A program made the position numbers and the translations under genes. This document shows, piece by piece, positions 33,589 to 54,800 of a stretch of DNA of 64,000 nt. This stretch comes from Ilumatobacteraceae bacterium (GTDB lineage: Bacteria; Actinomycetota; Acidimicrobiia; Acidimicrobiales; Ilumatobacteraceae), in NCBI GenBank assembly GCA_031430695.1, contig JANPBZ010000134.1:8683-72682 (forward strand), written 5' to 3'. Positions within the stretch are counted from its first letter, which is position 1. Each line of letters opens with the position of its first letter. Below the pieces are notes generated by a model. The model searched no databases and was not told the origin of the DNA. It worked only from the letters and a program-made list of their open reading frames with translations.

Positions 33589-33802
33589 AATACTTCTCGC
33601 AGGGTTGAAATTGTCAAGGTCTCGGCAAGAATGCCGATGAAATCCCTGGTGAGAATGAAGATTCACGTCAGAGGGCTGGGCTCGAGACGTGTGGTTCGGT
33701 GGACGAACGCACAACTCGATCGCTGCACGGGTGCCGGCGCCAACTCGGCGCGCCCCCATTCGGACTCACTATATTCCTGTCGGCGGCCGGGCCTGTTCAC
33801 AC

Positions 33803-36800
33803 ATGGCTGACGACAGACCCTCCTCAAACAACGCCTCCCGCTGGTCGGGTCTGCGACGAAGCGCTCTCGCGACCGCGCTCGTCAGTGGATCTGTTGTGTT
33901 CGGCACCGGCCTGTTCGTTCCCTCGGTCGCTGCGGCTCCACTCTGCGCTTCACCGCCACTGACGGGCAACACGACTGCCACCGGTGTGATCAACACCTAC
34001 TACCCCGGTCAGACCTCGATCACAGCTGGCACGTCGAACACGACGGTGACGGTCGGAACGAGTCGCGGCTCGGCGACTCCGATCGCGGTTGGCGATCTTG
34101 TGATGGTGATGCAGATGCAGGGCGCAGAGATCAACGCGACCAACACCAACGCGTACGGCGACGGTGTCACGTCCGCGACGGCGTCAGGGTTCTTGAACAA
34201 TGCCTCGTTCATCGCCGGGCAGTACGAGTATGCGACCGTGCGCTCGGTGGCCGGAGCAGTGGTCGGGCTCGATGGTTCGGGTACGAACGGCGGACTCATC
34301 AACAACTACGTCAACGCCAGCGAGTCGGCGACTCAGGGTCAGCAGCGGTTCCAGGTCGTGCGCGTGCCGCAGTACTCGTCGGCCACATTGAGCGTGGCGA
34401 CGCCGCCTGCTGCCGTGGCGTGGGACGGCTCGAGCGGCGGCATCGTCGTGCTCGATGTCGCCAGCGATCTCAACCTCAACGGCGCGACGATCAACGTCAC
34501 CGGCCAAGGCTTCCGTGGCGGTCTGCAGCGGAGTCGAAGCGGCACCGGCGGGTTGGCCAACACCGACTACCGAACGACCACCGCGCAAGCAGCGAATGGT
34601 CAAAAGGCGGAAGGCATCGCCGGAACCACGAAGTGGACCACCGGTTCGGCCGACACCGTCGGCGACGGATATCCGAACGGCGACTTCGGCCGCGGCGCAC
34701 CCGGCAATGCCGGCGGTGGTGGGACCGACGGCGACCCGGCTTCCAACAGCGAGAACTCCGGCGGCGGTGGCGGAGGCAACGGCGGTGCCGGCGGCGTCGG
34801 AGGCAACACCTGGTCGTCGAACCTCGCACGCGGCGGGCATGGCGGTGCTGTGGTGCCCGGGACCGCGAGCCGAGTGTTCCTCGGCGGTGGCGGTGGCGCC
34901 GGCAGCGACAACAACGCAGTCCTTTCGTCAAGTGGTGGCGCAGGCGGAGGCATGGTGCTGGTGCGCGCCGGCAGCCTGTCGGGCACGGGCACGATCAACG
35001 CCGACGGCGCAGCCGGAAACGTGAGCGGTCAAGACGGCAGCGGTGGCGGCGGGGCAGGCGGCTCGATCGTCGTGCTCACTTCCTTGACCGGAGCGGCAAG
35101 CGGTATCAGCGGCCTGACGGCTCGTGCCCGAGGTGGTGCCGGCGGCAACGAGACCCACGCCGATCAACATGGCCCGGGTGGCGGCGGTGGCGGCGGGCGA
35201 GTGATCACTGCGGCTGCTACCGCATCGACCGTTGTCACAGCTGGAGCCAACGGCACCCACGTCCCGACGAGCAGTGCCTACGGTGCAACGAGCGGTAGCG
35301 CTGGTGCGTCGTCGGCGACTGCGGTCGTCGGCGATGCCCCAGGCACCAACACCGGCTCGCAATGCATCGATGCAAGTGTCACCAAATCGACCAACCCCAC
35401 CCCCGTGATCCCTGGCCAGACAGTGACCTATACCGTGGTGGCCACCAACGACGGCCCGTACCCTCGAACGGGCACGGCGCCAATCGTGGTGACCGACACG
35501 TTGCCCGCCGGGCTCACCTCGGCGACATGGACGTGCAGCGCCTCGGCCGGATCCAACTGCACCGCCAGCGGCAGCGGATCGTTGAGTACGACCGCCAACC
35601 TCGAGGTCGGTGACTCGGCGACATACACGATCACCGCGACCCTGGCGTCGACATTCACGGGGACCCTCTCCAACACCGCCACCGTCGCCGGGCCGGCGAC
35701 GATTCCTGAGCTCAACGCCACGAACAACTCGGCGACATCGGCCGTCCTGGCCGAACCACGCGCCAACCTTGGCATCACCAAGACGGACGGAGTCGCTGCT
35801 GAGGTACCCGGCACCAATGCCGTCTACACGATCGTGGCGTCGAACGCCGGTCCCTCCACGGCAACCAACGCACTGATCACCGATTCACTGCCGGCGGGCA
35901 CGATCTCGGGTTCGTGGACGTGCGCAGCCGGCAGCGGGGGCACATGCGGTGCGGCAAGCGGCACGATGCCGATGTCGACGACTGCGACCCTCTCGCCGAG
36001 CGGCACGGTGACGTATACCGTCACCGTCGCTGTGTCGTCGACCGCCACCGGTTCGCTGGCCAACACGGTCACGATCGCCGCCCCGGCCGGAACCGTCGAG
36101 ACCAACTCGGCCAACAACGTCGCGACCGACACCGACAACTTGACGCCGACGGCCGACCTGTCGATCTCGAAGACCGACGGTCTCACCACCATTGATGCCG
36201 GCACCGGCCTCACCTACACCATCGCCCTCTCGAATGCCGGCCCATCGGCGATCACCGGAGCGACGGTCACCGATACCTTCCCTGCCAGCCTGACCGGCGC
36301 AACGTGGACGTGTGCCGCGTCGGCTGGGTCGAGTTGCCCGGCATCGGGCTCCGGCAGCATCTCCGCATCCGTGAATGTTCTTGCTGCCGGCTCGGTGACG
36401 TTCACGGTGACCGCCACGGTGGTCTCCACTGCGACCGGCACGTTGTCGAACACGGCGACCGTTGCATTGCCCGGTGGGGCGACTGACCCGACCGCGGCCA
36501 ACAACACAGCCACCGACACCACGACCATCACCCGCCGAGCCGATGTCTCGATCACCAAGACCGACGGGGCCGCCACGGAGGTGCCGGGAACGTCGGTGAC
36601 CTACACGATCGTGGCGGCGAACGCCGGACCGTCTGCGGCGATCGGCACGAGCGTCACCGATACGTTGCCGGCCAGCCTCACGGGCGCGACCTGGACCTGC
36701 ACAGCCACCGCTGGGTCGACCTGCCCGGCATCGGGCAGCGGCAACATCAGCACCACGGTCGACCTACTGCCCAGTGGTAGCGCAACGTTCACCCTGACCG

Positions 36801-39800
36801 CCACGATCGCGTCGACCGCCACCGGGTCGCTGGCCAACACCGCCACCGTCGCAGTCGCCGCCGGAGTCACGGACCCCGCCGCTGGTAACAACTCGGCGAC
36901 CGACACCGACACGCTGACACCGACCGCCGACCTGTCGATCACCAAGACCGACGGTGTCACCGGCGAGGTGCCGGGAACGGCGGTGACGTACACGATCGTC
37001 GCCTCCAACGCCGGCCCGTCAACCGCCACCGCCGCAACCGCGACGGACACGCTGCCGGCCGTGTTGTCGGGTGGCACATGGACATGCTCGGCGTCCGTCG
37101 GCTCGACGTGTCCCGCATCGGGCAGCGGCAACATCAACGCCAGCGTCACGCTGGCTCCGGGCGGTACGGCGACGTTCACACTCACTGCCACGATCTCGAG
37201 CAGCGCCACCGGCAGCCTGGCCAACACGGCGACCATCGCCGCCCCGGCCTCGGTGACCGACCCGACACCTGGCAACAACTCGGCCACCGATGTCGACACC
37301 CTGACTCCCACCGGTGATCTGTCGATCACCAAGACCGACGGAGTCGCCACCGCGATCCCCGGGCAAAGCGTGACGTACACGATCGTCGCGACCAATGCCG
37401 GCCCGTCGGTGATCACCGCAGCGACCGTCGCCGACACGTTCCCCGCGTCGATCGCCGGCGCGACCTGGACATGCTCGGCCTCCGCCGGTTCGAGCTGCCC
37501 GGCATCGGGCAGCGGCAACATCAACGCCAACGTCAATCTGGCAGTCGCCGGCACGGCGACGTTCACCGTGACGGCACCCATCTCGCCGACGGCCACCGGC
37601 TCGTTGGTCAACACCGCAACGATCGCCGCGCCCGCCGGAAGCAGTGATCCGAGCGGCGCCAACAACTCGGCGACCGACACCGACACGTTGACACCGACGG
37701 CCGATCTGTCGATCACCAAGACCGACGGTGCAGCCACCGAGGTGCCAGGCACGCCCGTGACGTACACAATCGTCGCCTCGAACGCCGGGCCCTCCGCGGC
37801 GTCGGGCTCGAACGTCGCCGACACCTTCCCCGCCGCACTCACTGGTGCAACGTGGACGTGCTCGGCAGGCGGCGGAGCGACGTGCCCGGCGTCGGGTAGC
37901 GGCAACATCAGTGCGACGGTCGACCTGCCGGTGGGTGGTACGGCGTCGTTCACGGTCAACGGCACCGTCGCCGCGGGCGCAACGGGCTCGCTGACCAACA
38001 CGGCGACCGTGTCGGTCGGCGCAGGCATCACGGATCCTGCGCCGGGCAACAATGCCGCGACTGACACCGACACCCTGACGCCGACGGCAGATCTGCTGAT
38101 CACCAAGACCGATGGGGCCACCACCGAGGTGCCCGGGACATCGGTGACCTACACGATCGTGGCCTCCAACGCCGGCCCTTCGACGATCACCGCGGCAACC
38201 GTCACCGATACGATGCCGGCCTCGCTGAGCGGCGTGACCTGGACGTGTTCGGCTTCGGCGGGCTCGTCGTGCCCGGCCTCTGGCTCGGGCTCGATCAGTG
38301 CTTCCGTCACCTTGGTCTCCGGTGGAGCGGCGACGTTCACGGTCACCGGCGCCATTTCGGCGACTGCCACGGGATCGCTGGCCAACACGGCCACGGTGGC
38401 GCTGCCCGGAGGTGCCACCGACCCTACACCGGCCAACAACTCGGCCACCGACACCGACACACTGACGCCGACCGCTGATCTGTCGATCACCAAGACCGAC
38501 GGATCGGCAACCGAAGTACCGGGCACAGCGGTGACCTACACGATCGTGGCCAGCAATGCGGGCCCGTCCGCCGTCACTGCCGCGACGGTCGCCGACACGA
38601 TGCCCGCCGCGCTCACCGGGGTGACCTGGACGTGCTCCGCCAGCAGCGGTGCCGCCTGCCCGGCGAGCGGCAGTGGCGACATCAACGCCTCGGTCGACCT
38701 GCCCGTGGGTGGTTCGGCGACGTTCACCGTCTCGGCAACGATCTCCGCGTCGGCGACGGGCAACCTCGTCAACACCGCAACGGTCGCGGCGCCGGGTGGG
38801 GTCACGGATCCGACGCCGGCGAACAACTCGGCGACCGATGCCGACTCGCTGATCCCGACCGCTGATCTGTCGATCACCAAGACCGATGGTGTTGTGACGG
38901 AAGTGCCGGGCACCGCGGTGGCGTACACGATCGTGGCGACCAATGGGGGTCCGTCGGCGGTCAGCGCGGCGACGATCGCCGACACCATGCCTGCTGCATT
39001 GACCGGGGTGACGTGGACGTGCGCCGGTGCCTCGGGTGGGACCTGCCCGGCGAGCGGCAGCGGCAACATCAACGTCAGCGTCGATCTGCCAGTCGGCGCC
39101 TCGGTGACGTTCACCGTCTCGGCGACGATCTCCACCTCGGCGACCGGCACGCTGGTCAATACGGCCACGATCGCGCCGCCTGCCGGCGTCACTGATCCGA
39201 CGCCGGCGAACAACTCGGCGACCGATACCGACACCTTGAACCCCACGGCTGACCTGTCGATCACCAAGACCGATGGGTCTGCGACCGAGGTGCCGGGCAC
39301 TGCGGTGACGTATACGATCGTGGCCGGCAACTCGGGTCCGTCGGCCGTGATCGCGGCGACGGTTGCCGACACGATTCCCGCAACGCTCAACGGCGCGACA
39401 TGGACCTGCGTGCCGGCCGGTGGTGGGTCGTGTGCAGCCAGCAGCGGCAGTGGCAACATCAGCACGACCGTCGATCTGCCGGTCGGCGCGACTGCGACGT
39501 TCACGATCTCGGCCACCGTGGTGGCAACGACCACGGGCAACCTGGTCAATACGGCATCGATCACTGCGCCGGGCGGGGTCACCGATCCGACGCCTGCCAA
39601 CAACTCGGCGACCGACACCGATACCTTGAATCCGACGGCCGATCTCTCGATCAGCAAGACCGACGGAGTCGCCTCGGTCATTCCCGGCCAAAGCACGACG
39701 TACACCGTCGTGGTCGGCAATGCCGGCCCGTCGACCGCGGTGAACGCACCCGTCGCCGATGCACTTCCTGCTGGTGCGACTTCCGGTTCGTGGACGTGTG

Positions 39801-42800
39801 CCGCGTCTGTCGGCGCAAGCTGCGGTGCTGCATCGGGATCGATGCCGATCGCGACCACCGTCACCATCGCCGCCGGCGCGACTGCGACGTACAACGTGGT
39901 CGTCGCGGTCTCGTCGACTGCTACAGGCTCGTTGACCAATACCTCGACGGTGCAGGCACCGGCCGGAGTGACCGACCCCGTGTCGGCCGACAACTCGGCC
40001 ACCGACATCGACTCGCTGACCCCGACCGCCGATGTGTCGATCTCAAAGACCGATGGCCTCACCACCGTGGTGCCCGGCGCCAACGTCACCTACACCGTGG
40101 TCGCCTCCAATCCCGGTCCTTCGACCGTGACCGGTGCGACAGTCAGCGACACGATTCCCGCGGCGTTGAGCGGCGCAACCTGGACGTGCTCGGCCAGCGG
40201 CGGGTCGACATGTCCGGCCACCGGCAGCGGCGATCTCGCCGCGTCGGTCACCCTTGCTCCGGGCGGGTCGACAACGTTCACGATCTCGGCCACTGTCGTT
40301 GCCTCGGCCACCGGCACGATCTCCAACACAGCGACGATCACGTTGCCGGGCACAGTCACCGACCCGACGCCCGCCAACAACTCGGCCACTGACCTCACCA
40401 CCGTGACACCGCAGACCGACCTGACCATCACCAAGACCGACGGGACTCCGACAGCGGTGCCGGGCCAGTCGACCACCTACACGATCGTGGTCACCAACAC
40501 GGGACCATCCAGCGTCACCGGTGCGGCTGTGACCGACACGATGCCCGCAGGCGTGACGACGATGAACTGGTCGTGTGCCGGTTCGGGTGGCGGAAGCTGC
40601 CCGGCGGCGGGCAGCGGTTCGATCAGCGACAACGTCGACCTGCCGGTCGGTGCGTCGGTCACGTACACCGTCACGGTCGCAGTGGCCGCAGGCGCGACGG
40701 GAACGTTGACCAACACTGCCACCGTCGCCGCACCGCTCGGTGTCACCGATACGAACGCAGCGAACAACACCGCGACCGATGTCGACACGCTGACGCCACG
40801 TGCCGATCTGGCGGTCACCAAGACCGATGGCGTCGCCTCGGTGATCCCCGGGCAATCGACGACCTACACGGTCACAGTGACCAACGCTGGCCCATCGGAT
40901 GCCCCGAACACCGTTGTCACTGACGCCACGCCCGTCGATGCCTCGTTCACGTCGTGGAGCTGCTCGCCGAGCGCCGGCGCCGCCTGCTCGACGGCATCGG
41001 GAAGCGGGTCGATCAACACCTCCGTCGATCTGCCGCTCGGCACGATCGTCACGTTCGTCGTCGACGCCGCGATTGACGCCGCGGCCACTGGCACGCTCGG
41101 CAACACGGCGACGGCCGCCCCGGCGCCGGGCATCACCGACCCTGTTGTCGGCAACAACTCGGCCACCGATACTGACACGCTCACACCGACCGCTGACCTG
41201 GCGATCACCAAGACGAACCTTCTCAGCACGGTGGTGCCGGGCGATCCGATCAGCTACACCGTCACGGCCTCGAACTCCGGCCCGTCGTCGGTCGTCGGTG
41301 CATCGGTCGTCGATGCGTTGCCGGCCTCGTTGACGGCGGCAACGTGGACCTGCGCGGCGTCGGGTGGCGGCTCGTGCACATCGTCGGGTTCCGGTTCGAT
41401 CAACGAAACCGTGAACCTGCCGGTCGGAGCGACAGTGATCTACACGGTCGACGGAGTCGTCGCCTCGGCAGCGATCGGCAGCATCGACAACACCGCAACC
41501 GTGGGAGTGCCGGTCGGGGTGACCGATCCGGTCGTCGGCAACAACTCGGCCACCGATAGCGATCCGTTGACCCCCGAAGTCGACCTGTCGATCACCAAGA
41601 CCGACGGCCTTGCCATTGCCGACCCGCTCGATGCCGTGACCTACACGATCGTGGTGTCCAACGACGGGCCTTCGTCGGTGTCCGACGCGCAGGTCGTCGA
41701 CCTGATTCCGGCGGCTCTGCTCGGGGCGACGTGGACCTGTGCATCGGGCGTCGGGGGCAACTGCGACCTGGCCGGCCCGGTCGCCGGCGACATCAACACC
41801 ACCGTCGATCTGGCCGTCAACGGCTCCGTGCAGTTCACCGTCACCGCCACGATCGCCGGGTCGACGATCGGCACGGTCATCAACACTGCCACCGTGTCGG
41901 CTCCGTCCGGTGTGAGCGAGACCAACAGTGCCGACAACGCGGCGACCGATGCAACGGCCGTCACCTCGACCGCAGCCCTGTCGATCACCAAGACCGACGG
42001 ACAAGCCACCGATGTGGCAGGCACTTCATCGACGTACACGATCACCGTCGCCAACTCCGGTCCATCGGCAGTGATCAACGCGGCGGTGGCCGACGCGCTG
42101 CCGCCCGCATTGACCAATGCGACCTGGACGTGCACGGCCTCCGGTGCCGGCAACTGCGACGACGCCGGACCCACAGCGGGTGACATCAACTCCACCGTCG
42201 ACCTGCCGTCGGGCGAGTCGGCAACCTTCACGGTCACCGCAACCGTCGATCCGAGCTTCACCGGGTTGCTGTCGAACACGGCCACCGTCACCGCGCCGCC
42301 CGGCACGATCGACGATCCGTCGAACAACAGCAGCACCGACGACACCACAGTCGTCGCCGAAGCCAACCTGACCGTCGCCAAGTCCGACGGCACAGTCACG
42401 GCGACTCCGGGGGCCGACACCACGTACACAGTGACCGTCGACAACGCCGGGCCTTCAGCCGTGGTCGGCGCGACCGTCGGCGACGTGTTGCCCGCCGGGG
42501 CGACGGCGATGAACTGGACATGCGCCGCCAGCGTTGGGTCGTCGTGCACCGCTTCGGGAAGTGGCTCGCTCGGTGACACCGTCGATCTCCTGCCCGGCGG
42601 CCAGGTGACCTACGTCGTCATCGTCGACATCGACGCTGCGGCCACAGGCCTGCTGACCAACACCGCCACTGCAACTGTTCCCCCGACCATGACCGAGACA
42701 TCACCGCTCGACAACACCGCAACCGACATCGACAGCCTGGTTGCCGAGACAGACCTGGCGATCACCAAGACCGACAACACGCTCGCCGCGGTACCTGGCA

Positions 42801-45800
42801 CCGCGATCACCTACACCATCGTCGCCACCAACAATGGGCCGTCCGACGCCATCGGAGCCACTGTCGCCGACACGTTCCCGGGCGAGTTGAACTCGATCAG
42901 TTGGACATGCGTCGGTCCGTGCACACCCGCTGGCAGCGGAGCGCTGAACGACGTCGTCGGCCTTCCTGTCGGCGCCACCGTCACGTACACCGTCACGGCG
43001 ACCATCGCCGCATCGGCGGTTGGTGTGCTGAGCAACACCGCCACCGTGACCGCCGCGCCTGGCACCGTTGATCCGAACCCGGTCAACGATTCGGCCACCG
43101 ATGTCGACACGCTCGCCGCTGTCGCCGATCTGTCGATCACCAAGACCGATGGAGCGGCCAATGAGGTGCCCGGCACCCCGGTCAGCTACACGATCGTCGT
43201 CTCGAACAATGGTCCATCCGATGTCGTCGGTGCGTCCGTGGTCGACACGTTCCCGCTCGACCTCGCCAACGCCACATGGAGTTGTGTGGCTGCAGGGGGG
43301 ACCTGCCCGGTAGCGGGATCGGGCGACATCAACGCAGTGGTCATCCTGGCCGTCGGTGGCGCGGCGACGTTCGCGGTCACCGCTGATGTCGCCGCTTCGG
43401 CGACCGGCACGTTGACCAACACCGCAACGGTGACAGCACCTCCGGCCACCGATCCGAACGCGGGGAACAACTCGGCCACCGATGTCGACACCTTGTCGCC
43501 TGAAGTCGATCTGTCGGTCACCAAGACCGACAACGACCTGGTGGCCCAACCCGGTGACTCCGTGACCTACGAGATCGTGGTTTCCAATGCCGGACCATCC
43601 GCTGTGATCGGCGCACCGTTCACCGACATCGTGCCCTCCTCGCTCGTCGGAGTGTCGTGGACGTGCGCGGCATCGTCGGGCGCGTCGTGCCCAGCGGCGG
43701 GATCGGGCAATGCCATCAACACCACGCTCTCGCTGACACCTGGTGGGACAGCAACGTTCACCGTGACTGCCACGGTGGATGCACCGGCGACTGGCGTGAT
43801 TGCCAATACGGCGACCATCGCTGCGCCCGTTGGCGTGGTCGAGACAGCATCCGGTGACAACACCGCGACCGACACGACGTCGGTGACGCCGACGGCAGAC
43901 CTGATCATCACCAAGACGGACGGGCTGACGTCGATCGCTGCGGGCCAAGCAATCACATACACAATCGTCGTCACCAACGCTGGTCCGTCGACCATCACCG
44001 ACGCACTCGTCACCGACGTACTGCCCTCAGCGTTGGTCGGTGCCACCTGGACATGTGCCGCGTCGGCCGGGTCGAGCTGCCTCGACGCGGCAGGCTCAGG
44101 CGACATCAGCGACCTTGTCACGTTGGCATCCACCGGTACGGCGACGTTCACGGTCTCCGCGACCGTCGCCGCGTCGACGCCGGCGGGCACGCTTTCTAAC
44201 ACCGCCGATGTGGCGATGCCGGTTGGCTCGGTCGACCCGACACCGGCCAACAACACGGCCACTGACACCACGACGATCGAGCGGCACGCCGACCTCGAGG
44301 TCACCAAGACCGATGGCGTGAGCTCGGCGACGCCGGGTCTGGCGATCCAGTACACGATCGTCGTCACCAACAACGGGCCATCCAATGTGTCTGCGGCCAC
44401 GGTCGTCGACACCATGCCGGCCACGTTGATCGGCGCCACCTGGACGTGCTCGGCTTCGGTCGGCTCGACGTGCCCGGCCTCCGGATCTGGCGATTTCGCC
44501 TCGCTCGTCGACCTGCTCGCCGGTGGCACGGCAACCTTCACCGTCGATGCCACCGTGGCCGCCTCGGCGCTCGGCACGCTGGTCAACACGGCCGGCGCGA
44601 CCGTTCCGTCCGGCGTGACCGACCCGGTGCCCGGCAACAACTCGTCGACCGACACCGACACCCTCGACCCCGTTGCCGACCTGTCGATCACCAAGGACGA
44701 CTTCTCGGCCACGGCGACGCCAGGCGCGCCAGTCACCTACACGGTTGTCGTATCGAATGCCGGGCCTTCCGACGTCATCGGCGCGACGGTTGCCGACGTG
44801 CTGCCGGCGACCTTGAGCGGGGTCACCTGGAGCTGCTCGGTCAGCGGTTCCGGCTCCTGCCCGGCCTCGGGCAGTGGCGACGTCAACAGCCTCGTCTCGC
44901 TGACCGTTGGCGCCACGGCGACATTCACGATCACCGGGACTCTGTCTGCAGCAGCCACTGCCAATCTGGTCAACACGGCCACCGTCACCGCCCCCGTCGG
45001 TGTCACCGATCCGGCACCGGCCGACAACAGTGCCACCGACGTCGACACATTGGCGCGAGTCGCCGATCTGTCGGTCACCAAGACCGACTTCGCCGCCACC
45101 GCGACACCGGGTACAGCGGTGAGCTACCAGATCGTCGCCACCAACAACGGGCCATCCGACATCACCGGTGCTGTGGTGACCGACACCCCACCGGCTGAGC
45201 TCACCGGTGTCACCTGGTCGTGCACCGCCACGGGCGGGGCATCGTGCAGCAACTCCAGTGGTGTCGGGGCAATCAACGAACTCGCCGATCTGCCAGTGGG
45301 CGCCTCGGTCACCTTCACCCTCACAGCGACGCTGAGCCCTGCAGCGACTGTCCCCGTCGCCAACACCGTCCAGATCGCTGTACCTGCTGGGGCGACGGAT
45401 CCGAACCCAAGCAACAACACCGCTACCGACACCGACGCGATCGTGCCAGTGGCTGATCTGTCGATCACCAAGACGGTAGACCTGGCAGCGGCACTGCCCG
45501 ACGACGTGCTGACGTACACCATCGTCGTCGCCAATGCCGGACCGTCCGACATCAGCGATTCGCTGGTCGACGACGTCGTGCCCGCCGACGTGGTCGGGGC
45601 GACGTGGACGTGTGCGGCGCAGGCCGGCGGCAACTGCGATCTCACCGGTCCTGTCAGCGGCGACATCGCGGGCACCGTCGACCTGGTGGTCGGTGGCAGT
45701 GTGTCGTTCACGGTGACCGGCACGGTCGCGTCGACGGCGACCGGCACGATCATCAACTCGGCGACCGTCGCTGCACCGGCGGGAGCCAACGATCCGAACC

Positions 45801-48800
45801 CGGCCAACAACACGTCCTCGGCATCGACGACGATCAACCCGAAAGCCGACCTGTCGATCACCAAGACCGATGGCAATGTCACCGATGTCGCCGGTACATC
45901 GCTCCAGTACTCGATCGTTGTCACCAACAGCGGTCCTTCGACCATCCAAGACGCGCCGGTCGACGACGTGCTGCCGGCCGCGTTGCTGGCAGTGTCGTGG
46001 ACCTGCTCGCCTTCTGCTTTCTCCGTATGCGACGATCCAGCGGGTGGCGGCGACATTACTACAACCGTCGATCTGCTGGCCGGTGGAACAGCGACGTTCG
46101 TCATCGACGCCTCGATCGACCCGGCCTTTGCCGGTGTGCTCACCAACACTGCCTCGGTGACCATGCCAGGCGTCGGTGTCGACCCGACTCCTGCCAACAA
46201 CTCGGCGACCGATCTCACCACGATCGTCGCCGAGGCCGACCTGTCGATCACCAAGACCGATGGCAGCCTGGCGGCTACGCCCGGCGGCTCGACCGTCTAC
46301 ACAGTGACGGTGAGCAACTCCGGTCCGTCGACGGTCGTTGGCGCCCCGGTGTCGGACGCCATTCCCGCCGGTGCGACAGCAATGAACTGGACCTGCCTGG
46401 CGTCGCCGGGCTCGTCGTGCGCGCCTTCCGGCAGCGGAGCGCTCGCTGACACGGTCTCGTTGCTGCCGGGTGGCGCCGCCACGTACCAAGCAACGGTCGA
46501 CATCTCGAGCGCGGCGACGGGCGCCTTCGTCAACACTGCGTCGGTCGCCGCACCGATCGGGGTCACCGACCCGGCGCCCGCGAACAACTCGGCGACCGAT
46601 ATCGACACGTTGAGCCCGTCGGCCGACCTGTCGATCACCAAGACCGACGGCTTGTCGAACGCCGTGCCCGGCACGTCGTTGACTTACACGGTTGTCGCCA
46701 CGAATGCCGGACCTTCCGACGCGGTCGGCGCGACGATCAACGACAGTCTCCCGGCCTCGCTTGTCGGCTCGACCTGGACCTGTGTCGGTACTGGCGGCGG
46801 CACCTGCGCAGGAGCCGGAGTCGGGAACATCGCCGACACGGTGAATCTCCCGACGGGTGCCTCGGTCACCTACTCGGTGACGGCAATGATCGATTCCAAC
46901 GCCACCGGAACGTTGGTCAACACAGCGTCGATCGCTGCACCGATCGGCACCACCGATCCAGACCCGAGCGACAATTCGGCCACCGACACCGACACGCTGA
47001 CACCGCAATCCGACCTGTTCGTCACCAAGACCGACGGCCAAACCAATGTGGTGCCGGGTACGCCCGTCACCTACACGGTCGTCGCCGGCAACGCCGGCCC
47101 GTCGGCTGTGGCCGGTGCGACAGTGACCGACCTCCTCTCAGCCGACCTGCTCGGCGCGTCGTGGACGTGCGCGGCGGCCGGCGGAAGATGCCCGGCGACC
47201 GGTACGGGCAATATCGCGGCCAACATCGATCTTGCAGTCGGTGGCACTGCGACCTTCACGATCTCCGCCACCGTGTCGCCCTCGGCAACCTCCACGCTCG
47301 CCAATACCGTCGACGTCGCCGTTCCGAGCGGCGTCACCGATCCGATGGCCGGCAACAACACAGCGACCGACACCGACACCTTGAACCCTGAGGCCGATCT
47401 GTCGATCAGCAAGACCGACGGCCGGATCAGCGCCCAGCCCGGCGACGCGATCACCTACACCCTCGTCGCCGCCAACGCCGGCCCGTCGGCGGTCGTCGGT
47501 GCCCCGGTGATCGACGCCTTGCCCGCAGGCCTGTCCGCAGCCTCGTGGACCTGCGCACCGTCCGCAGGTGCGTCGTGTCCTGCATCGGGTAGCGGCAACA
47601 TCAACACGACGGTGTCGCTGCCGGTAGGAGCGACGGCAATCTTCACCGTCACGACGTCGATCACCGCAACGTCAGGCGTCGTTGCGAACACGGTGCAGAT
47701 CGATGCTCCGGCAGGGGTCAGCGATCCGAGCACCGGTGACAACGTGGCGACCGATACCACCTCGATCACGCCGACCGCGGATCTCTCGATCACCAAGACC
47801 GACGGCCTCACCACGGTGGCTGCCGGTGAGGTGGTCACCTATTCGATCGTTGCCACCAACGCAGGACCGTCGCCGATCATCGGTGCAACCGTCGCCGACG
47901 CGATCCCCGGAGTGCTCGTCGGCGCATCCTGGACCTGCTCTGCGACGGTCGGTTCGACGTGCGCCAACGCCACGGGCAGTGGCAGCATCAACGAGCTCGC
48001 CGACCTTGCCGCTGGCGGTCAGGTGACGTTCTCGATCACCGGGACCGTCAATGGATCGGCGGCGCCAGGGCTGCTCTCCAACACGGCGACGATCACGATG
48101 CCGTTCGGCTCGATCGATCCGACGCCGGGCAACAATTCGGCGACCGACACCACCGTCATCGAGCGACGCGCTGACCTGTCGATCTCCAAGGACGACTTCA
48201 CCGGCGCGGCAGTGGCCGGTGGTTCCACGACCTACACCGTCGTCGTCTCGAACAACGGACCTTCGAACGTGTTCGGCGCCGCAGTCAGCGACCCGATCCC
48301 GACCGGAGTGACGGCAATGACCTGGACGTGCAGTGCGACCGCGGGAGCCTCGTGCATCGTCGCCGGCACGGGCGCGCTGGCGACGAACGTCAACCTCGCG
48401 GCCGGCTCGTCGGTCACCTTCACCGTCGTCGTCGACATCGACGCAGCGGCCTCGGGCCTGCTGACCAACATCGCCTCGGTCATCCCGCCGAGCGGCGTGA
48501 CCGACCCGAACTCGGCCAACGACTCCGACACCGATGTCGACACGGTTGCCGGCGTTGCGGATCTGACCATCACCAAGGACGACGGTTCGTCGACTGCGAC
48601 CCCAGGGTCGACCACGACGTACACGATGGTCGTCACCAACAACGGGCCGTCGAACGTGACCGGTGCGACCGTGACCGATCTCCAACCGGTCGGCACCACG
48701 TTCGACTCGTGGGCCTGCACGGCGACCGGAGCGGCGAGCTGCAGCGACCCGTCGGGAACGGGCTCCATCTCGACCACGGTCGATCTGGCCGTCGGCGCCT

Positions 48801-51800
48801 CGGTGACCTTCACCGTGGTGATGGCAATCGACTCCTCGGTGACCGCTGACGTGACGAACACCGCGACGGTGGCCGCACCCAGCGGCGTCACCGATCCAAA
48901 CTCTGGCGACAACGCTGCCAGCGACACCGACACCATGCTGTTGGTCGCTGATCTGTCGATCACCAAGACTGATGGCTCGGCGACCGTGACGCCCGGCACG
49001 ACCGTCGTCTACTCGGTGACCGCATCGAACGCCGGCCCATCCGACATCGCCGGCGCGGCGGTCACCGACCTCGTGCCGGCCGCGCTCACCGGGGCGACGT
49101 GGACCTGCGCCGGAACGAGCGGAGGAGCATGCACCACCGCGACCGGATCGGCACCGATCAACCAGTCCGTCGATCTGCCGGTCGGTGGCTCGGTCACGTT
49201 CACCATCACGGGTGTGGTCGATCCGGCACTGGTCGGCGACCTCGTCAACACGGCAACGGTTGCCGCGCCGGTCGGCGTGATCGACCCGAACCCAGGCAAC
49301 AACTCGGCAACTGACCTCGACACCAACACTCCGGTCACCGACCTCGCCGTCAGCAAGACCGATGGCCTGACATCGGCACTGCCCGGCGACGTGGTGACCT
49401 ACACCGTCACGGTTTCCAGTGCCGGCCCATCCGATGCCGTCGGCGCATCGTTGATCGATGCCGTGCCGGCTGTGCTCACCGGCGTGACATGGACCTGCGC
49501 TGCGGTCAATGGCGGCTGTGTTGCCAGCGGCACGGGCTCACTGAACGAGTCGATCGACGTAGCCGTGGGTGGCACGGTGACGTTCTCGATCACCGGAACC
49601 GTCGTCGGCACAGCGACTGGAACGATCACCAACACGGCCACAGTCATGGCGCCAGCAGGCGCGAACGATCCCAACCCGGGCGACAACTCGGCCACCGATG
49701 CGACGACCGTGAATCCGAAGGCCGACCTGTCGATCACCAAGACCGATGGCAATCTCAGCGATGTTGCCGGCACCACGGTGACATACACGATTGAAGTCGC
49801 CAACGCCGGTCCGTCGATGATCACCGGCGCACCGGTGGCCGACGTCATGCCCCCGGCGCTCAGCGGAGCGACGTGGAGTTGCACGGCGACTGCCGGGTCG
49901 GTGTGCGGCGGGGTCGGTGGCGCCGGTGACATCGCCGCGACGGTCGATCTGCTCGCCGGTGGTGTGGCTACCTTCACGGTGACCGCGACGATCGACGCTG
50001 CCTTCACCGGCACGCTGACGAACACCGCGACCGTGGCCATGCCCGGCCCCGGTGTGGATCCGACGCCCGGCAACAACATCGCCGTCGACACCACCGACGT
50101 CGTGGCAGTCGCTGATCTGTCGGTGACGAAGACTGATGGTGTGGTGTCGGAGGTGCCTGGTACTGCGGTGTCGTACACGATCGTGGTGTCGAACGCCGGT
50201 CCGTCGGATGTGGTCGGTGCGTCGGTGAGTGATGTGATGCCGGTGTCGTTGTCGAATGTGTTGTGGTCGTGTGTGGGTGTGGCTGGTGGTGTGTGTTCGC
50301 CGTCGGGTACGGGTGATGTCGTTGATGTGATCGATGTGGCTTCGGGTGGCTCGGTGACGTACTCGGTGTCGGGTGATTTGGCTGCTGATGCGTCCGGGGT
50401 GTTGGTCAATGCGGTGTCGGTGGTTGCTCCTGGTTCTGTGACGGATCCGGATCTGTCGAACAACTCGGCGAGCGATGTCGACACGTTGGTGCCGACTGCT
50501 GATCTGTCGGTGACGAAGACTGATGGTGTGGTGTCGGAGGTGCCTGGTACTGCGGTGTCGTACACGATCGTGGTGTCGAACGCCGGTCCATCGGATGTGG
50601 TCGGTGCGTCGGTCACCGACGTCTTCCCGGCGACGCTCATCGGCGCCTCGTGGACCTGCGTCGCCGTGAACGGTGCCTGCCCGGCGTCCGGTAGCGGCAG
50701 CATCAGCGAATTGGTCGACCTGGCAACAGGCGGCACTGCAACGTTCACCGTCACCGCCACCTTGTCGAGTTCGGCCACAGGATCGATCACCAATACGGCC
50801 ACCGTCACGCCGCCGGCGGGCGCGACGGATCCGGATCCGACCAACAACTCTGACGCCGACACCGACACGCTCGATGCCGTTGCCGATCTGTCGATCACCA
50901 AGACCGACAACGACACGAATGCTCGCCCGGGAGACCTGATCACGTACGAGATCGTTGCCTCCAACGCCGGTCCGTCGGCGATCACTGGCGCTGTTGTCAG
51001 TGACGCGATGCCCGCGGGAGTCTTTGGCGTCAGTTGGACGTGCGCAGCCGGCAGTGGCGCCACGTGCCCGGCGTCGGGTATCGGTGATCTGAACGAAACA
51101 GTCGATCTGGCCGTCGGCGCCTCGGCGACGTTCACTGTCACGGCGACCGTCACGGCCTCCGTTGGATCGATCACCAACACCGCGCAGATCGATGCACCCG
51201 CCGGTGCCACGGATCCGAACACAGCCGACAACGTCGCCAGCGACACCACCCAGGTCGACCCGCTCGGTGATTTGTCGATCACCAAGACCGACGGTCTGAC
51301 GTCGGCCGCGCCGGGAGCAGGGATCTCCTACTCCATCGTTGTTTCCAACAGCGGTCCGTCGGCGGCCGCAGGCGTCGCTATCAGCGACACCGTGCCCCCG
51401 TCGTTGTCGGGTGTCACCTGGTCGTGCACGGCCAGCCCCGGATCCGCATGCACCAATGCGACCGGCACCGGCGACATCAGCGAACTTGTTGATCTCGCTG
51501 CCGGTGGTTCTGTTTCGTTCATGGTCGCGGCAACGATCGACGCCGATGCCACGGGTGTGCTCAGCAATACCGCGACGGTGGCTCCACCCTCCGGCTTCGC
51601 CGACTCCGACTCCGCCAACAACTCGGCCACCGATGTCACCGACCTGGATCCGGCGGTCGACCTCGCCGCGACGAAGACCGATGGGCAGGTCATCGCGATC
51701 CCCGGCACGCCGATCAGCTACATCATCGTCGTCACCAACGCCGGCCCGTCGGTGGCCGCGGGATCGCAAGTGCTCGACAGCCTGCCTGCGTCGTTGCTCG

Positions 51801-54800
51801 GAGCGACCTGGACATGTAGCGCGGCACCGGGATCCTCGTGCGGTGCGCCGTCGGGTAGCGGCTCGATCGACGAGATCGTGACCGTCGGCGTCGGCGGCAC
51901 CCTCACGTACATCGTTGCTGCTTCCGTTTCACCATCTGCCGTGGGAGTGCTCGCCAACACCGTCACCGTCATGCCCGCCCTCGGCACCGGCGACACGAAT
52001 GCCGGCAACAACTCGGCGACCGACGTCGACTCGCTGTCGCCGCAGGCCAACGTGAATGTTGTCAAGACCGACGGAGCAGCCGCGGCTGTGCCGGGCACGA
52101 CGATCACCTACTCGATCATCGTCAGCAACGCCGGCCCATCCGCTGTGTCCAATGCCGCCGTTGCCGATGTGCTGCCGGCAGAGCTCATCAATGCCACCTG
52201 GACGTGCACGGGCTCGATCGGTGGCTCGTGCGATGCGGTCTCGGGCATCGGTGGCATCGTCACGACGGCCGATCTGCAGGCCGGCTCCGCTGTGACCTAC
52301 ACCCTGACTGCCACGGTCGTCCCCGTCGCTACAGGCACCGTGGTCAATACCGCAACGGTGAGCGTGCCGGTGGGTGTCGTCGACTCCGATCTGACCGACA
52401 ACTCGTCGACCGATATCGACAACCTCACTCCTTCGGTCGACCTGTCGATCGCCAAGACAGATGGTGTCACATCGGTGGTTCCGGGGACCTCGACCACCTA
52501 CACGATCATGGTTGCAAACAGCGGGCCGTCAACGGCGGCCGGTGCTCAGATCACGGACCTGTTGCCCGCAGAGCTCATCAATGCCAGTTGGGGGTGCACC
52601 GCTTCGGGCGGCGCGACGTGCGGCACCCCCAGCGGCTCTGGCGACGTATCGCTGCTGGCCACACTGCCGGCCGGCGGATCACTGACGATCGATGTCGATG
52701 CCGATATCGACCCGACCGCCACGGGCTTCGTCGTCAACACGGCAACGGTCACAGGACCTGTCGGCGTGACCGACACGGACCCCGCCAACGATTCTGCGAC
52801 CGACAGCGATGTACTGACTCCAACGGCCGACCTGTCGATCACCAAGGACGACGGTCTGGCGACGGCATTGCCCGGCGACCCCGTGGCCTATGCCATCGTG
52901 GTCACCAACAACGGCCCGTCCGCAGTCGTCGGCGCGACCGTCACTGATGTGATGCCCGCCGGGTTGTCGGCGGTGACATGGACGTGCAGCGCTTTGCCGA
53001 GTTCGTCGTGCGCGTCCGCTGCGGGTGGCGGGGACATCGCGACCACGGTCGATCTGGCCATCGGTGAGTCGGCGACGTTCGTGATCGACGCGACGATCGC
53101 GATTAGCCAAATCGGTGTCGTGACCAACACCGCGACCGTCGACGCCCCAGTGGGGGTCACCGATCCCAACAGCGCCGACAACATCGCCATCGACACGACC
53201 ATGGTCAACGGGCTCGGCGACGTGTCGATCGTCAAATCCGATGGTGTTGCCACGATCGTTGCCGGAACCTCGACTACGTACACGATCGTGGTCACCAACC
53301 CGGGGCCGTCGCAGATCGACCGCATCCAGGTGATCGACTCGTTGCCGGCTGCATTGATCGGTGCGAGTTGGACCTGCGCGGCGACCGGTGCAGCGTCGTG
53401 TAGCGCAGCATCAGGCTTCGGTTCGATCAGCGAGATGATCGACATGCCGGCCGCGAGCACCGTCACGTTCAGCGTGACGGCCACGGTGTCACCCTCTGCC
53501 AGTGGCACGCTTTCGAATACTGCGTCGGTGACGTTGCCGACTGGCATCGTGGACTCCGACCTGACCAACAATGACTCGACTGATGTCACCGACATCGACA
53601 GGATCGCCGATCTGGCCGTGACGAAGACCAATCACGTCTCGGCGCTCACGCCTGGCAACTCGGTCGGCTACGACATCACCGTCGTCAACAACGGGCCTTC
53701 ATCGGTCAGCGGTGCCACGCTCAGCGATCTCGTTCCCGCCTCGATCACCGGTGTCACGTGGACGTGTACAGCGGGCGCCGGGGCCGCATGTGGAGCGGGC
53801 GCCGGCAGCGGCAACGTGTCGCTCAACCTCGATCTCGCGGTCGGCGCGAGTGTGGCCGTACGCATCACCGGCACGGTGTCGCCGAACGCAGCCGGAACAC
53901 TGACCAACTCCGCAACGGTCGCCCCGCCTGTCGGCGTCACCGACCCCGATGTCGCAGACAACACAGCCACAGATACCGACACGCTCGACCCGGTCGCCGA
54001 CGTGTCAGTGGCCAAGTCGAACGGCGTCACGTCGCAGTCGCCAGGTGCAACGTCGTCGTACACCATCACCGTTGCCAACGCCGGGCCTTCTGCGGCCGCC
54101 GGCGTCACCATCGACGACCCGCTGCCTTCGGGCGTGGCGACTGCCTCGTGGACATGCTCGGCAGCGGCAGGTTCGTCGTGCGCCGCTGCGTCGGGAATCG
54201 GAGCTGTCAACACCACCGTCGACCTTGCCGCGGCCGGAACTGTGACGTTGACGGTGTCGCTGCAAGCCGGCCTGTTCGCTGGCACATTGACCAACACGGT
54301 GACCGCGACCGTGGCAGCTGGAACGACCGACCCCGACCCCTCCAACAACGTCGCCAGTGACACCGACACCTTGGTGTTCACCGCCGACATCGCTGTCACC
54401 AAGGCCGTGTCTGCGGCCGTGGTTGCAGTTGGTCAGGCCCTCAACTACACGGTCGTTGTCTCCAACGCCGGCCCCGATCGGGCGGCGGGCGTCACCGTGC
54501 TCGACACCATGCCTGCCGGCCTGGCCAGCCTCACATGGACATGCGCGGCAACCCCTGGTTCCTCGTGCCCGGCGAATGGCACGGGCGACATCACCTCGAG
54601 CATCGATCTTGCCGCTGGCGGATCGGCCACCTTCACCGTGAGCGCGACGGTGACCAGTGCCGCGCCGAACACCATCGTCAACACTGCGACTGCTGCCGTC
54701 GGGCCCGACACCATCGATCCTGATCCGACGAACAACACGGCCAGTGTGACGTTCGCGGTCGACTTCACCTCGTCGCTGTCGGTGCAGAAGACAGCCACAG

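Follow-up and report, generated by a model that had tools for sequence, protein, structure and literature searches.

A nested five- and ten-module period in the DUF11 stalk of a giant surface-protein gene from an Ilumatobacteraceae genome

The stretch of DNA considered here, called the window below, comprises 64,000 nucleotides (nt) of contig JANPBZ010000134.1 (positions 8,683 to 72,682) from a metagenome-assembled genome (MAG) of Ilumatobacteraceae (Acidimicrobiia), which consists of 270 contigs and has a completeness of 91%. The window contains one open reading frame (ORF) of 22.3 kb on the forward strand (33689-55984, 7431 codons). Its product of about 7,400 residues is composed of a head, 51 DUF11 modules of about 129 residues each, two shorter DUF7507-type modules and a sorting signal. 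How did an array of so many similar modules grow? A preliminary description of the sequence had proposed that a block of ten modules, about 3.87 kb long, was duplicated as a whole. The observations described below make it quite probable that the likeness between modules ten apart is the historical footprint of unequal recombination, which copied blocks of modules in what would be a sortase-anchored DUF11 fiber.

The period of the stalk

The array was cut at the DLSITK anchor into 53 modules, the numbering of which agrees with that of the preliminary description, and a second segmentation was made with a hidden Markov model (HMM) of the module. The recurring motifs that had drawn attention to the period are all present, at most 3 nt from the positions first reported: AMNWTC at 42506 and 46379 (3873 nt apart), IERHADL at 44276 and IERRADL at 48158 (3882 nt apart), NPKADLSITKTDGN at 45836 and 49712 (3876 nt apart), and GNCDL(A/T)GPV(A/S)GDI at 41756 and 45629.

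All pairwise module identities were then computed. Modules 17-26 (block I) and 27-36 (block II) share a mean identity of 56.1% in amino acids and 63.8% in nucleotides, compared with 46.5-49.4% and 57.7-60.6%, respectively, at the control offsets 6-9 and 11-14, and with a background of 48.5 +/- 4.7% in amino acids. When the general closeness of each module to the consensus is removed by row and column centering, offset 10 retains an excess of +5.7 points, or about 5.8 standard deviations (SD; permutation SD 0.98), which was reached in 0 of 5000 shuffles of the module order. Against the maximum over offsets 2-30, the probability is P = 0.011. For 8 of the 10 positions in blocks I and II, the offset-10 partner is among the top 5 of 50 matches.

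The signal is modest and resides mainly at the protein level. The enhanced diagonal at 3.87 kb that a ten-module period predicts is found as the offset-10 excess in the protein identities, though a nucleotide k-mer dot-plot rises only weakly, at offsets 9-10. The 7.75-kb diagonal is carried by the pairs 17/37 and 18/38 only. Autocorrelation of the nucleotide sequence of the whole gene is uninformative for the super-repeat because small indels between modules smear the lags past one or two units, and Tandem Repeats Finder detects no period other than that of 387 nt, in the 5' sub-array.

The relationships among the modules were analyzed in a maximum likelihood tree of 151 modules calculated with IQ-TREE, in which supports are given as ultrafast bootstrap (UFBoot)/SH-like approximate likelihood ratio test (SH-aLRT). 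The rows labeled as module 40 in the congeners are double modules (40a and 40b, described below), the placement of which is distorted in this tree, and a quick tree was re-run with the proper segmentation. As the preliminary description had anticipated, modules cluster by their place in the block, and they do so at positions 1, 2, 3, 6 and 7 with supports of 86-100. Clade A (99/97) unites {17,27,37} (98/83) with {22,32,41,46} (98/88), within which {22,32,41} is recovered at 86/77. Clade B (98/92) unites {18,28,38} (100/94) with {23,33,47} (99/86), and {23,33} is recovered at 99/83. The type-C pair {19,29} has a support of 100/99, with modules 34 and 14 joining loosely, and {2,12} is found at 100/98. 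The types can also be recognized in the alignment: A modules are marked by PGD and a DN ending, B modules by AG instead of PG, and C modules by AMNWTC.

A B module immediately follows an A module in 6 of 6 cases, an arrangement found in 0 of 200,000 shuffles, and the split of clade A into A1 and A2 is congruent with the split of clade B into B1 and B2. Because the two clades split congruently and B always comes after A, a five-module unit appears to have been copied first and the ten-module block next. We infer that the basic unit of the stalk consists of five modules led by an A-B dyad, and that this unit was doubled to ten and then copied again. The proposal that the gene grew by duplication of a whole ten-domain block is borne out as far as duplication of several modules at once and the position-specific clades are concerned, but the block was itself built from a smaller unit.

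The stalk downstream of module 16 can accordingly be laid out in half-blocks, all on the forward strand. Half-block h1 (modules 17-21, 41582-43507) contains A1, B1, C, D and E, as delimited by the segmentation and the tree. Half-block h2 (modules 22-26, 43508-45454) contains A2, B2 and three modules without clear partners. Half-block h3 (modules 27-31, 45455-47395) repeats A1, B1, C and D and ends with module 31, and h4 (modules 32-36, 47396-49339) is made up of A2, B2, the C-like module 34, and modules 35 and 36. In h5 (modules 37-40, 49340-50884), A1 and B1 are followed by modules 39 and 40, where congeners have 39, 40a and 40b. Half-block h6 (modules 41-45, 50885-52828) consists of A2, the weakly B2-like module 42, and modules 43-45, and h7 (modules 46-50, 52829-54772) of A2, B2 and modules 48-50. 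The periodicity thus extends outside the region first described, downstream to the A2-B2 dyad at 46/47 and upstream to the B-like modules 3 and 13, which stand in line with 23 and 33 at intervals of ten. Modules 1-16 (35369-41581, forward strand) hold the offset-10 pairs 2/12 and 3/13 together with a uniform sub-array, modules 4-11.

Several observations weigh against a simple history of block copying. The one-to-one alignment of modules 17-26 with 27-36 that had been drawn by eye stands for 8 of 10 positions, but the pairs 24/34 (ranks 32 and 25) and 25/35 (ranks 10 and 12) carry no partner signal, and 21/31 pairs weakly: module 21 groups with 39/40 and module 31 with the 5' sub-array. The upstream extension is partial, as modules 2 and 12 group with the C modules and not with type A. 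This incomplete correspondence at 24/34, 25/35 and 21/31 needs later replacement or conversion as an explanation. The branching of the block copies also differs by position, (17,27) being supported at 99/89 and (28,38) at 100/71, and in the approximately unbiased (AU) test the alternative (27,37) is not rejected (p = 0.27), so that the tree gives no consistent order for the three block copies. Furthermore, a homologue that carries a single block, and could thus represent an intermediate stage, was not found. The search for a more distant homologue did not help, and in the sole relative at an intermediate distance, an Ilumatobacter sp. with 60-62% identity in the head, the gene is cut by the end of the contig.

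Module 31 (47012-47395) deserves separate mention, as it sits with modules 4-11 although module 21 is its expected partner. Conversion from the 5' region may have replaced its original sequence; alternatively, module 31 may have stayed close to the consensus.

Conservation among congeners and the third block

With the head domain as query, the gene was located in 10 of the 24 genomes sampled from the genus, and it was not found in the 16 further families of the order that the search covered. Full or long copies were taken from four of these genomes (G002, G021, G009 and G041). The copies are collinear with the window over the individual modules, which are 65-91% identical. Between paralogues in modules 12-48, in comparison, identity is at most 64% and lies below that of the positional orthologues. 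When all modules of three or four species are combined in trees, nearly all positions form clades of their own. The offset-10 peak recurs at 5.0-6.4 points in G002, G021 and G009, accompanied by smaller peaks at 5, 15 and 20, and in G002 it is kept on a fresh segmentation; as the congeners share ancestry, this recurrence is a measure of robustness and not an independent replication.

The nonsynonymous divergence (dN) is 0.10-0.22 between orthologues (ratio to synonymous divergence, dN/dS, 0.12-0.27), 0.30-0.36 between super-repeat partners and 0.41-0.50 between most unrelated module pairs. The proportion of synonymous differences (pS) is about 0.5 for orthologues and paralogues alike, and dating of the duplications by dS failed, the synonymous sites being saturated or capped by codon bias. 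Because orthologues are closer to each other than paralogues are, and because dN follows the same order, the block duplication is placed before the divergence of the sampled congeners. Since then, the array has been frozen under purifying selection.

Modules 4-11 (36542-39640) are much more uniform, with 70-81% amino acid identity, a dN of 0.13-0.20 and exact 387-nt phasing. They too form mostly position-specific clades across species. This expansion by single modules is younger than the blocks and still older than speciation. Modules 8-10 (38090-39250) are the only positions that mix across species and lack position-specific clades, which suggests continuing exchange or turnover within the 5' sub-array.

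In the long-read congeners the gene carries frameshifts, two in G009, about six in G041 and many in G011. Because the modules on both sides of them stay intact, they are most simply read as indel errors of assembly and not as pseudogenization.

The third block departs from the other two. A tract of 116 nt at the start of module 39 (50111-50226, forward strand) is identical at 115 of 116 positions to a second copy at the start of module 40 (50498-50613), and the two modules share their first 38 residues. Segmentation with the module HMM yields 51 DUF11 modules in the window, compared with 52 (plus 2) in the long-read congeners G002, G009 and G041. The extra module of the congeners, 40a, is situated between window modules 39 and 40, and the second copy of the tract is the likely junction at which it is missing. 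When 40a is counted, the A modules of the congeners stand at 17, 22, 27, 32, 37, 42 and 47, that is, in one phase modulo 5 (P = 5e-6). Within each congener species the first 24-31 residues of 40a are those of 40b, and in G009 they are also those of module 39, which is identical to 40a over its whole length. The shared 5' tract of the region differs from species to species. Because the tract is identical within a species and different between species, short-tract gene conversion among the neighbors 39, 40a and 40b seems, from the sequences compared, to be still ongoing.

In the quick tree with the correct segmentation, 40a is placed next to 40 and near 20/21, and 39 is placed with 30 and 44; positions 3-5 of block III therefore do not correspond one-to-one to those of blocks I and II. 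The preliminary description regarded the third copy as rearranged around modules 39-40. The departure amounts to a shortfall of one module relative to the three long-read congeners, and adding 40a restores the five-module phase. The constant offset ascribed to the third copy likewise applies to modules 37 and 38, which stand at offset 10; module 41, by contrast, is at offset 9, and module 42 corresponds weakly and pairs with 43 in the tree. Of the triplets singled out as examples, 22/32/41 is recovered as a clade and 23/33 as a pair, but 33 and 42 are only 51% identical, which is near background.

Module 40a may have been lost by recombination between the identical 5' tracts, or it may be missing through a collapse of the short-read assembly, and the near-identical tract is equally what either would leave. 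In three short-read MAGs (G021, G019 and G006), the contigs that carry the gene end at the module 39/40 region. This region appears to defeat short-read assembly, and the module count of the window at this place needs caution. Annotators and assemblers should be aware of the 39/40 tract as a place where short-read MAGs break, or where a collapse may occur.

Proposed history of the array and alternative explanations

By combining these data, it is possible to outline how the stalk may have been built. A five-module unit with a leading A-B dyad would have been duplicated to give the ten-module block A1 B1 C D E A2 B2 F G H. This block would then have been copied to give blocks I (17-26), II (27-36) and III (37-45), and one more A2 B2 half-block (46-50) would have been added. 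Later, single modules would have been amplified near the 5' end (4-11). All four steps would precede the split of the sampled species, after which the modules would have persisted as positional orthologues under purifying selection, with short local conversion tracts continuing between neighbors (8-10 and 39/40a/40b). The third block would then seem rearranged only through the absence of 40a.

Exchange of a different kind could in principle produce the same period. Gene conversion or recombination might recently have taken place between modules ten apart, without any ancient duplication of blocks. Local cases of conversion do exist, as seen in the 115 of 116 identical nucleotides of modules 39 and 40, in the failure of modules 8-10 to be monophyletic by position and in the identity of 39 and 40a in G009. 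The observed exchange, however, is confined to adjacent modules. Partners at offset 10 have a pS of 0.49-0.65, which is saturated, they lack long identical tracts, and they are nearer to their positional orthologues (65-91%) than to their paralogues (55-62%), so that recent conversion over ten modules is a very improbable source of the period. An origin by chance, from motifs common to 53 similar modules, or by misassembly of a short-read MAG is harder still to credit. The source is a MAG of 270 contigs, the contigs of short-read congeners break inside the gene, and the signal, at about 8 identity points, is small in absolute terms. On the other hand, the excess at offset 10 was met in 0 of 5000 shuffles, the phase in the congeners has P = 5e-6, the bootstrap supports are high, and the block copies, being about 56% identical, are too different for an assembler to mix up. 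The long-read assemblies of G002, G009 and G041 show the 53 modules in the same order, and because the window is collinear with all three, a chimeric contig is unlikely. The super-repeat as an artefact is effectively refuted, and an artefact is possible only for the module count at 39/40.

The period might instead be maintained by function, in the manner of the titin and nebulin rulers, if A-B dyads every five modules were kept as regularly spaced sites of binding, hinging or cross-linking. Every module position is indeed conserved across species (dN/dS 0.12-0.27), the three long-read congeners have the same number of modules (52 plus 2), orthologues keep the type signatures (PGD and the DN ending in A, AG for PG in B), and the period-5 phase is exact across seven dyads in the congeners. 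Purifying selection on each module is nevertheless expected of any folded domain. The three positions outside the dyad have not kept their types, the A-B pattern is missing from the 5' third of the stalk, and the window copy, if real, tolerates a shift in phase. No partner structure of matching period is known, and the window offers no hint of one. Taken together, these points make a functional origin of the period unlikely, and beyond conservation nothing speaks for it. Assuming 4-4.5 nm per Ig-like domain, the dyads would recur about every 20 nm on a fiber of about 230 nm. That they serve as lateral binding or hinge sites, for bundling or for register with a periodic partner in the cell wall or matrix, is a slightly more doubtful conjecture; if true, the A-B dyad periodicity would be a bacterial counterpart of the titin-type super-repeats. 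Descent from copied blocks remains the preferred explanation of the period.

The encoded protein and its relation to known systems

The longest frame of the ORF opens with GTG at 33689. The real start is probably the ATG at 33803, which is favored because a signal-peptide-like segment comes right after it, and the gene is therefore taken to extend from 33803 to 55984 on the forward strand. The 51 DUF11 modules correspond to 51 matches to PF01345, and all 50 of 50 di-modules match TIGR01451; within 41582-45454, 10 of 10 modules lie above the PF01345 cut-off (537 bits). The stalk ends with the divergent module 51 and the two short DUF7507-type modules 52 and 53 (54773-55819). These are followed, at 55871-55984, by an LPSTGG sorting motif, a hydrophobic segment, an RRRR tail and the stop codon. 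Four matches to the sortase family (PF04203) above cut-off are present in the same genome, one of them with an internal TGA. Wall anchoring is supported because the LPSTGG signal is accompanied by these four sortase genes. From this architecture, the protein can be pictured as a sortase-anchored giant fiber or adhesin, in which a distal head would be carried on a long beads-on-a-string stalk with an anchor in the cell wall. The flanking genes are of a housekeeping nature (clpB, a major facilitator superfamily transporter, parA-like, hisD-like, purA and purB).

The AlphaFold2 model of di-module 17-18 (predicted local distance difference test, pLDDT, 96.7) contains two tandem Ig-like beta-sandwiches. 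The solved folds nearest to this model are the ectodomains of integrin alpha chains and the Ig-like domains of Gram-positive adhesins (AgI/II, SspB and PrgB), and when the PDB was searched by sequence with modules 17-18, no match appeared even at E <= 1. Across all modules (for example the one at 41582-41974), the only polar residues that never vary are K6, D40 and N101, along with C53 and C61. The model of isopeptide-forming Ig-like domains of the RrgB D2 type, TIGR04226, matches the C-terminal segment at 41.8 bits (cut-off 30) and 9 of 50 di-modules at E < 0.01. A Lys-Asn isopeptide bond and a disulfide in each module are plausible on this basis and would fit a mechanically robust stalk.

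The head (33959-35368, forward strand) is glycine-rich and free of repeats. Its residues 96-522 align to positions 39-409 of the 412-position model NF047640 with E = 1e-42, and the score of 146.4 bits is below the curated value of 275 for membership in the AgmC equivalog. The head is a domain related to the N-terminal domain of AgmC and not an equivalog. Homologous heads are present in other phyla: at six loci the head recurs with 43-53% identity, in Anaerolineaceae, Acidobacteriota, Thermoanaerobaculia, Pseudomonadales and Hymenobacter. Those of Anaerolineaceae and Hymenobacter are found on much shorter open frames of 1431-2947 amino acids.

The gene offers a clean bacterial example of a giant stalk that was probably built by nested duplications (of 5, 10 and about 35 modules) and then frozen in a long stasis. 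All positions have been kept as orthologues across species despite neighboring repeats that are up to 80% identical. It can be used as a worked case for models of the evolution of repeat arrays, and the A, B and C types permit a rational choice of representative modules for structural and biophysical work on DUF11 stalks.

The seven-module unit of nebulin is the classic super-repeat, and titin has super-repeats of 7 and 11 domains. The gene in the window differs from both in that it encodes a bacterial DUF11 stalk and not eukaryotic Ig/Fn3 or nebulin repeats, in that there are no exons to shuffle, and in that its period is nested, 5 in 10. Unlike titin and nebulin it has no known periodic partner, and the function of a ruler is not supported. 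It resembles other DUF11/TIGR01451 repeat proteins in that every DUF11 module matches PF01345 above cut-off. With AgmC, the adventurous gliding motility protein of Myxococcus, it shares a head that aligns to the N-terminal domain of NF047640, but the head is far under the cut-off, and the anchoring of the window protein is of the Gram-positive sortase type.

Björklund, Ekman & Elofsson (2006, PMC1553488) showed that domain repeats often grow by duplication of several domains at once, with the expansion located in mid-array. The present gene is similar: it shows an autocorrelation peak at a constant offset of several domains, clustering by position (with the exception of 24/34 and 25/35), congruent splits of adjacent modules and expansion in mid-array. 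A close parallel in architecture is the giant LPxTG adhesin of Mobiluncus mulieris, which has 7651 amino acids and 51 Ig-like repeat domains; its growth was ascribed to domain duplication by intragenic recombination, blocks of domains being inserted relative to the homologue of M. curtisii (PMC10619420). Both proteins come from Actinomycetota and have the same overall plan: a head at the N-terminus, about 51 Ig-like domains that make up the stalk, and an LPxTG anchor. They differ in that the modules are DUF11 domains here and ester-bond or isopeptide domains there, in that the cross-links are proven in M. mulieris and conjectural in the window protein, and in habitat, the latter belonging to an environmental Ilumatobacteraceae MAG. 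A shallow literature search turned up no DUF11 protein for which a nested 5/10-module super-repeat had been described. Duplication of blocks is a well-known route by which repeat proteins grow, and the stalk is a new example of it and not of a new mechanism. What is particular to this gene is the nested 5-in-10 period of a DUF11 stalk, which is strictly conserved across species.

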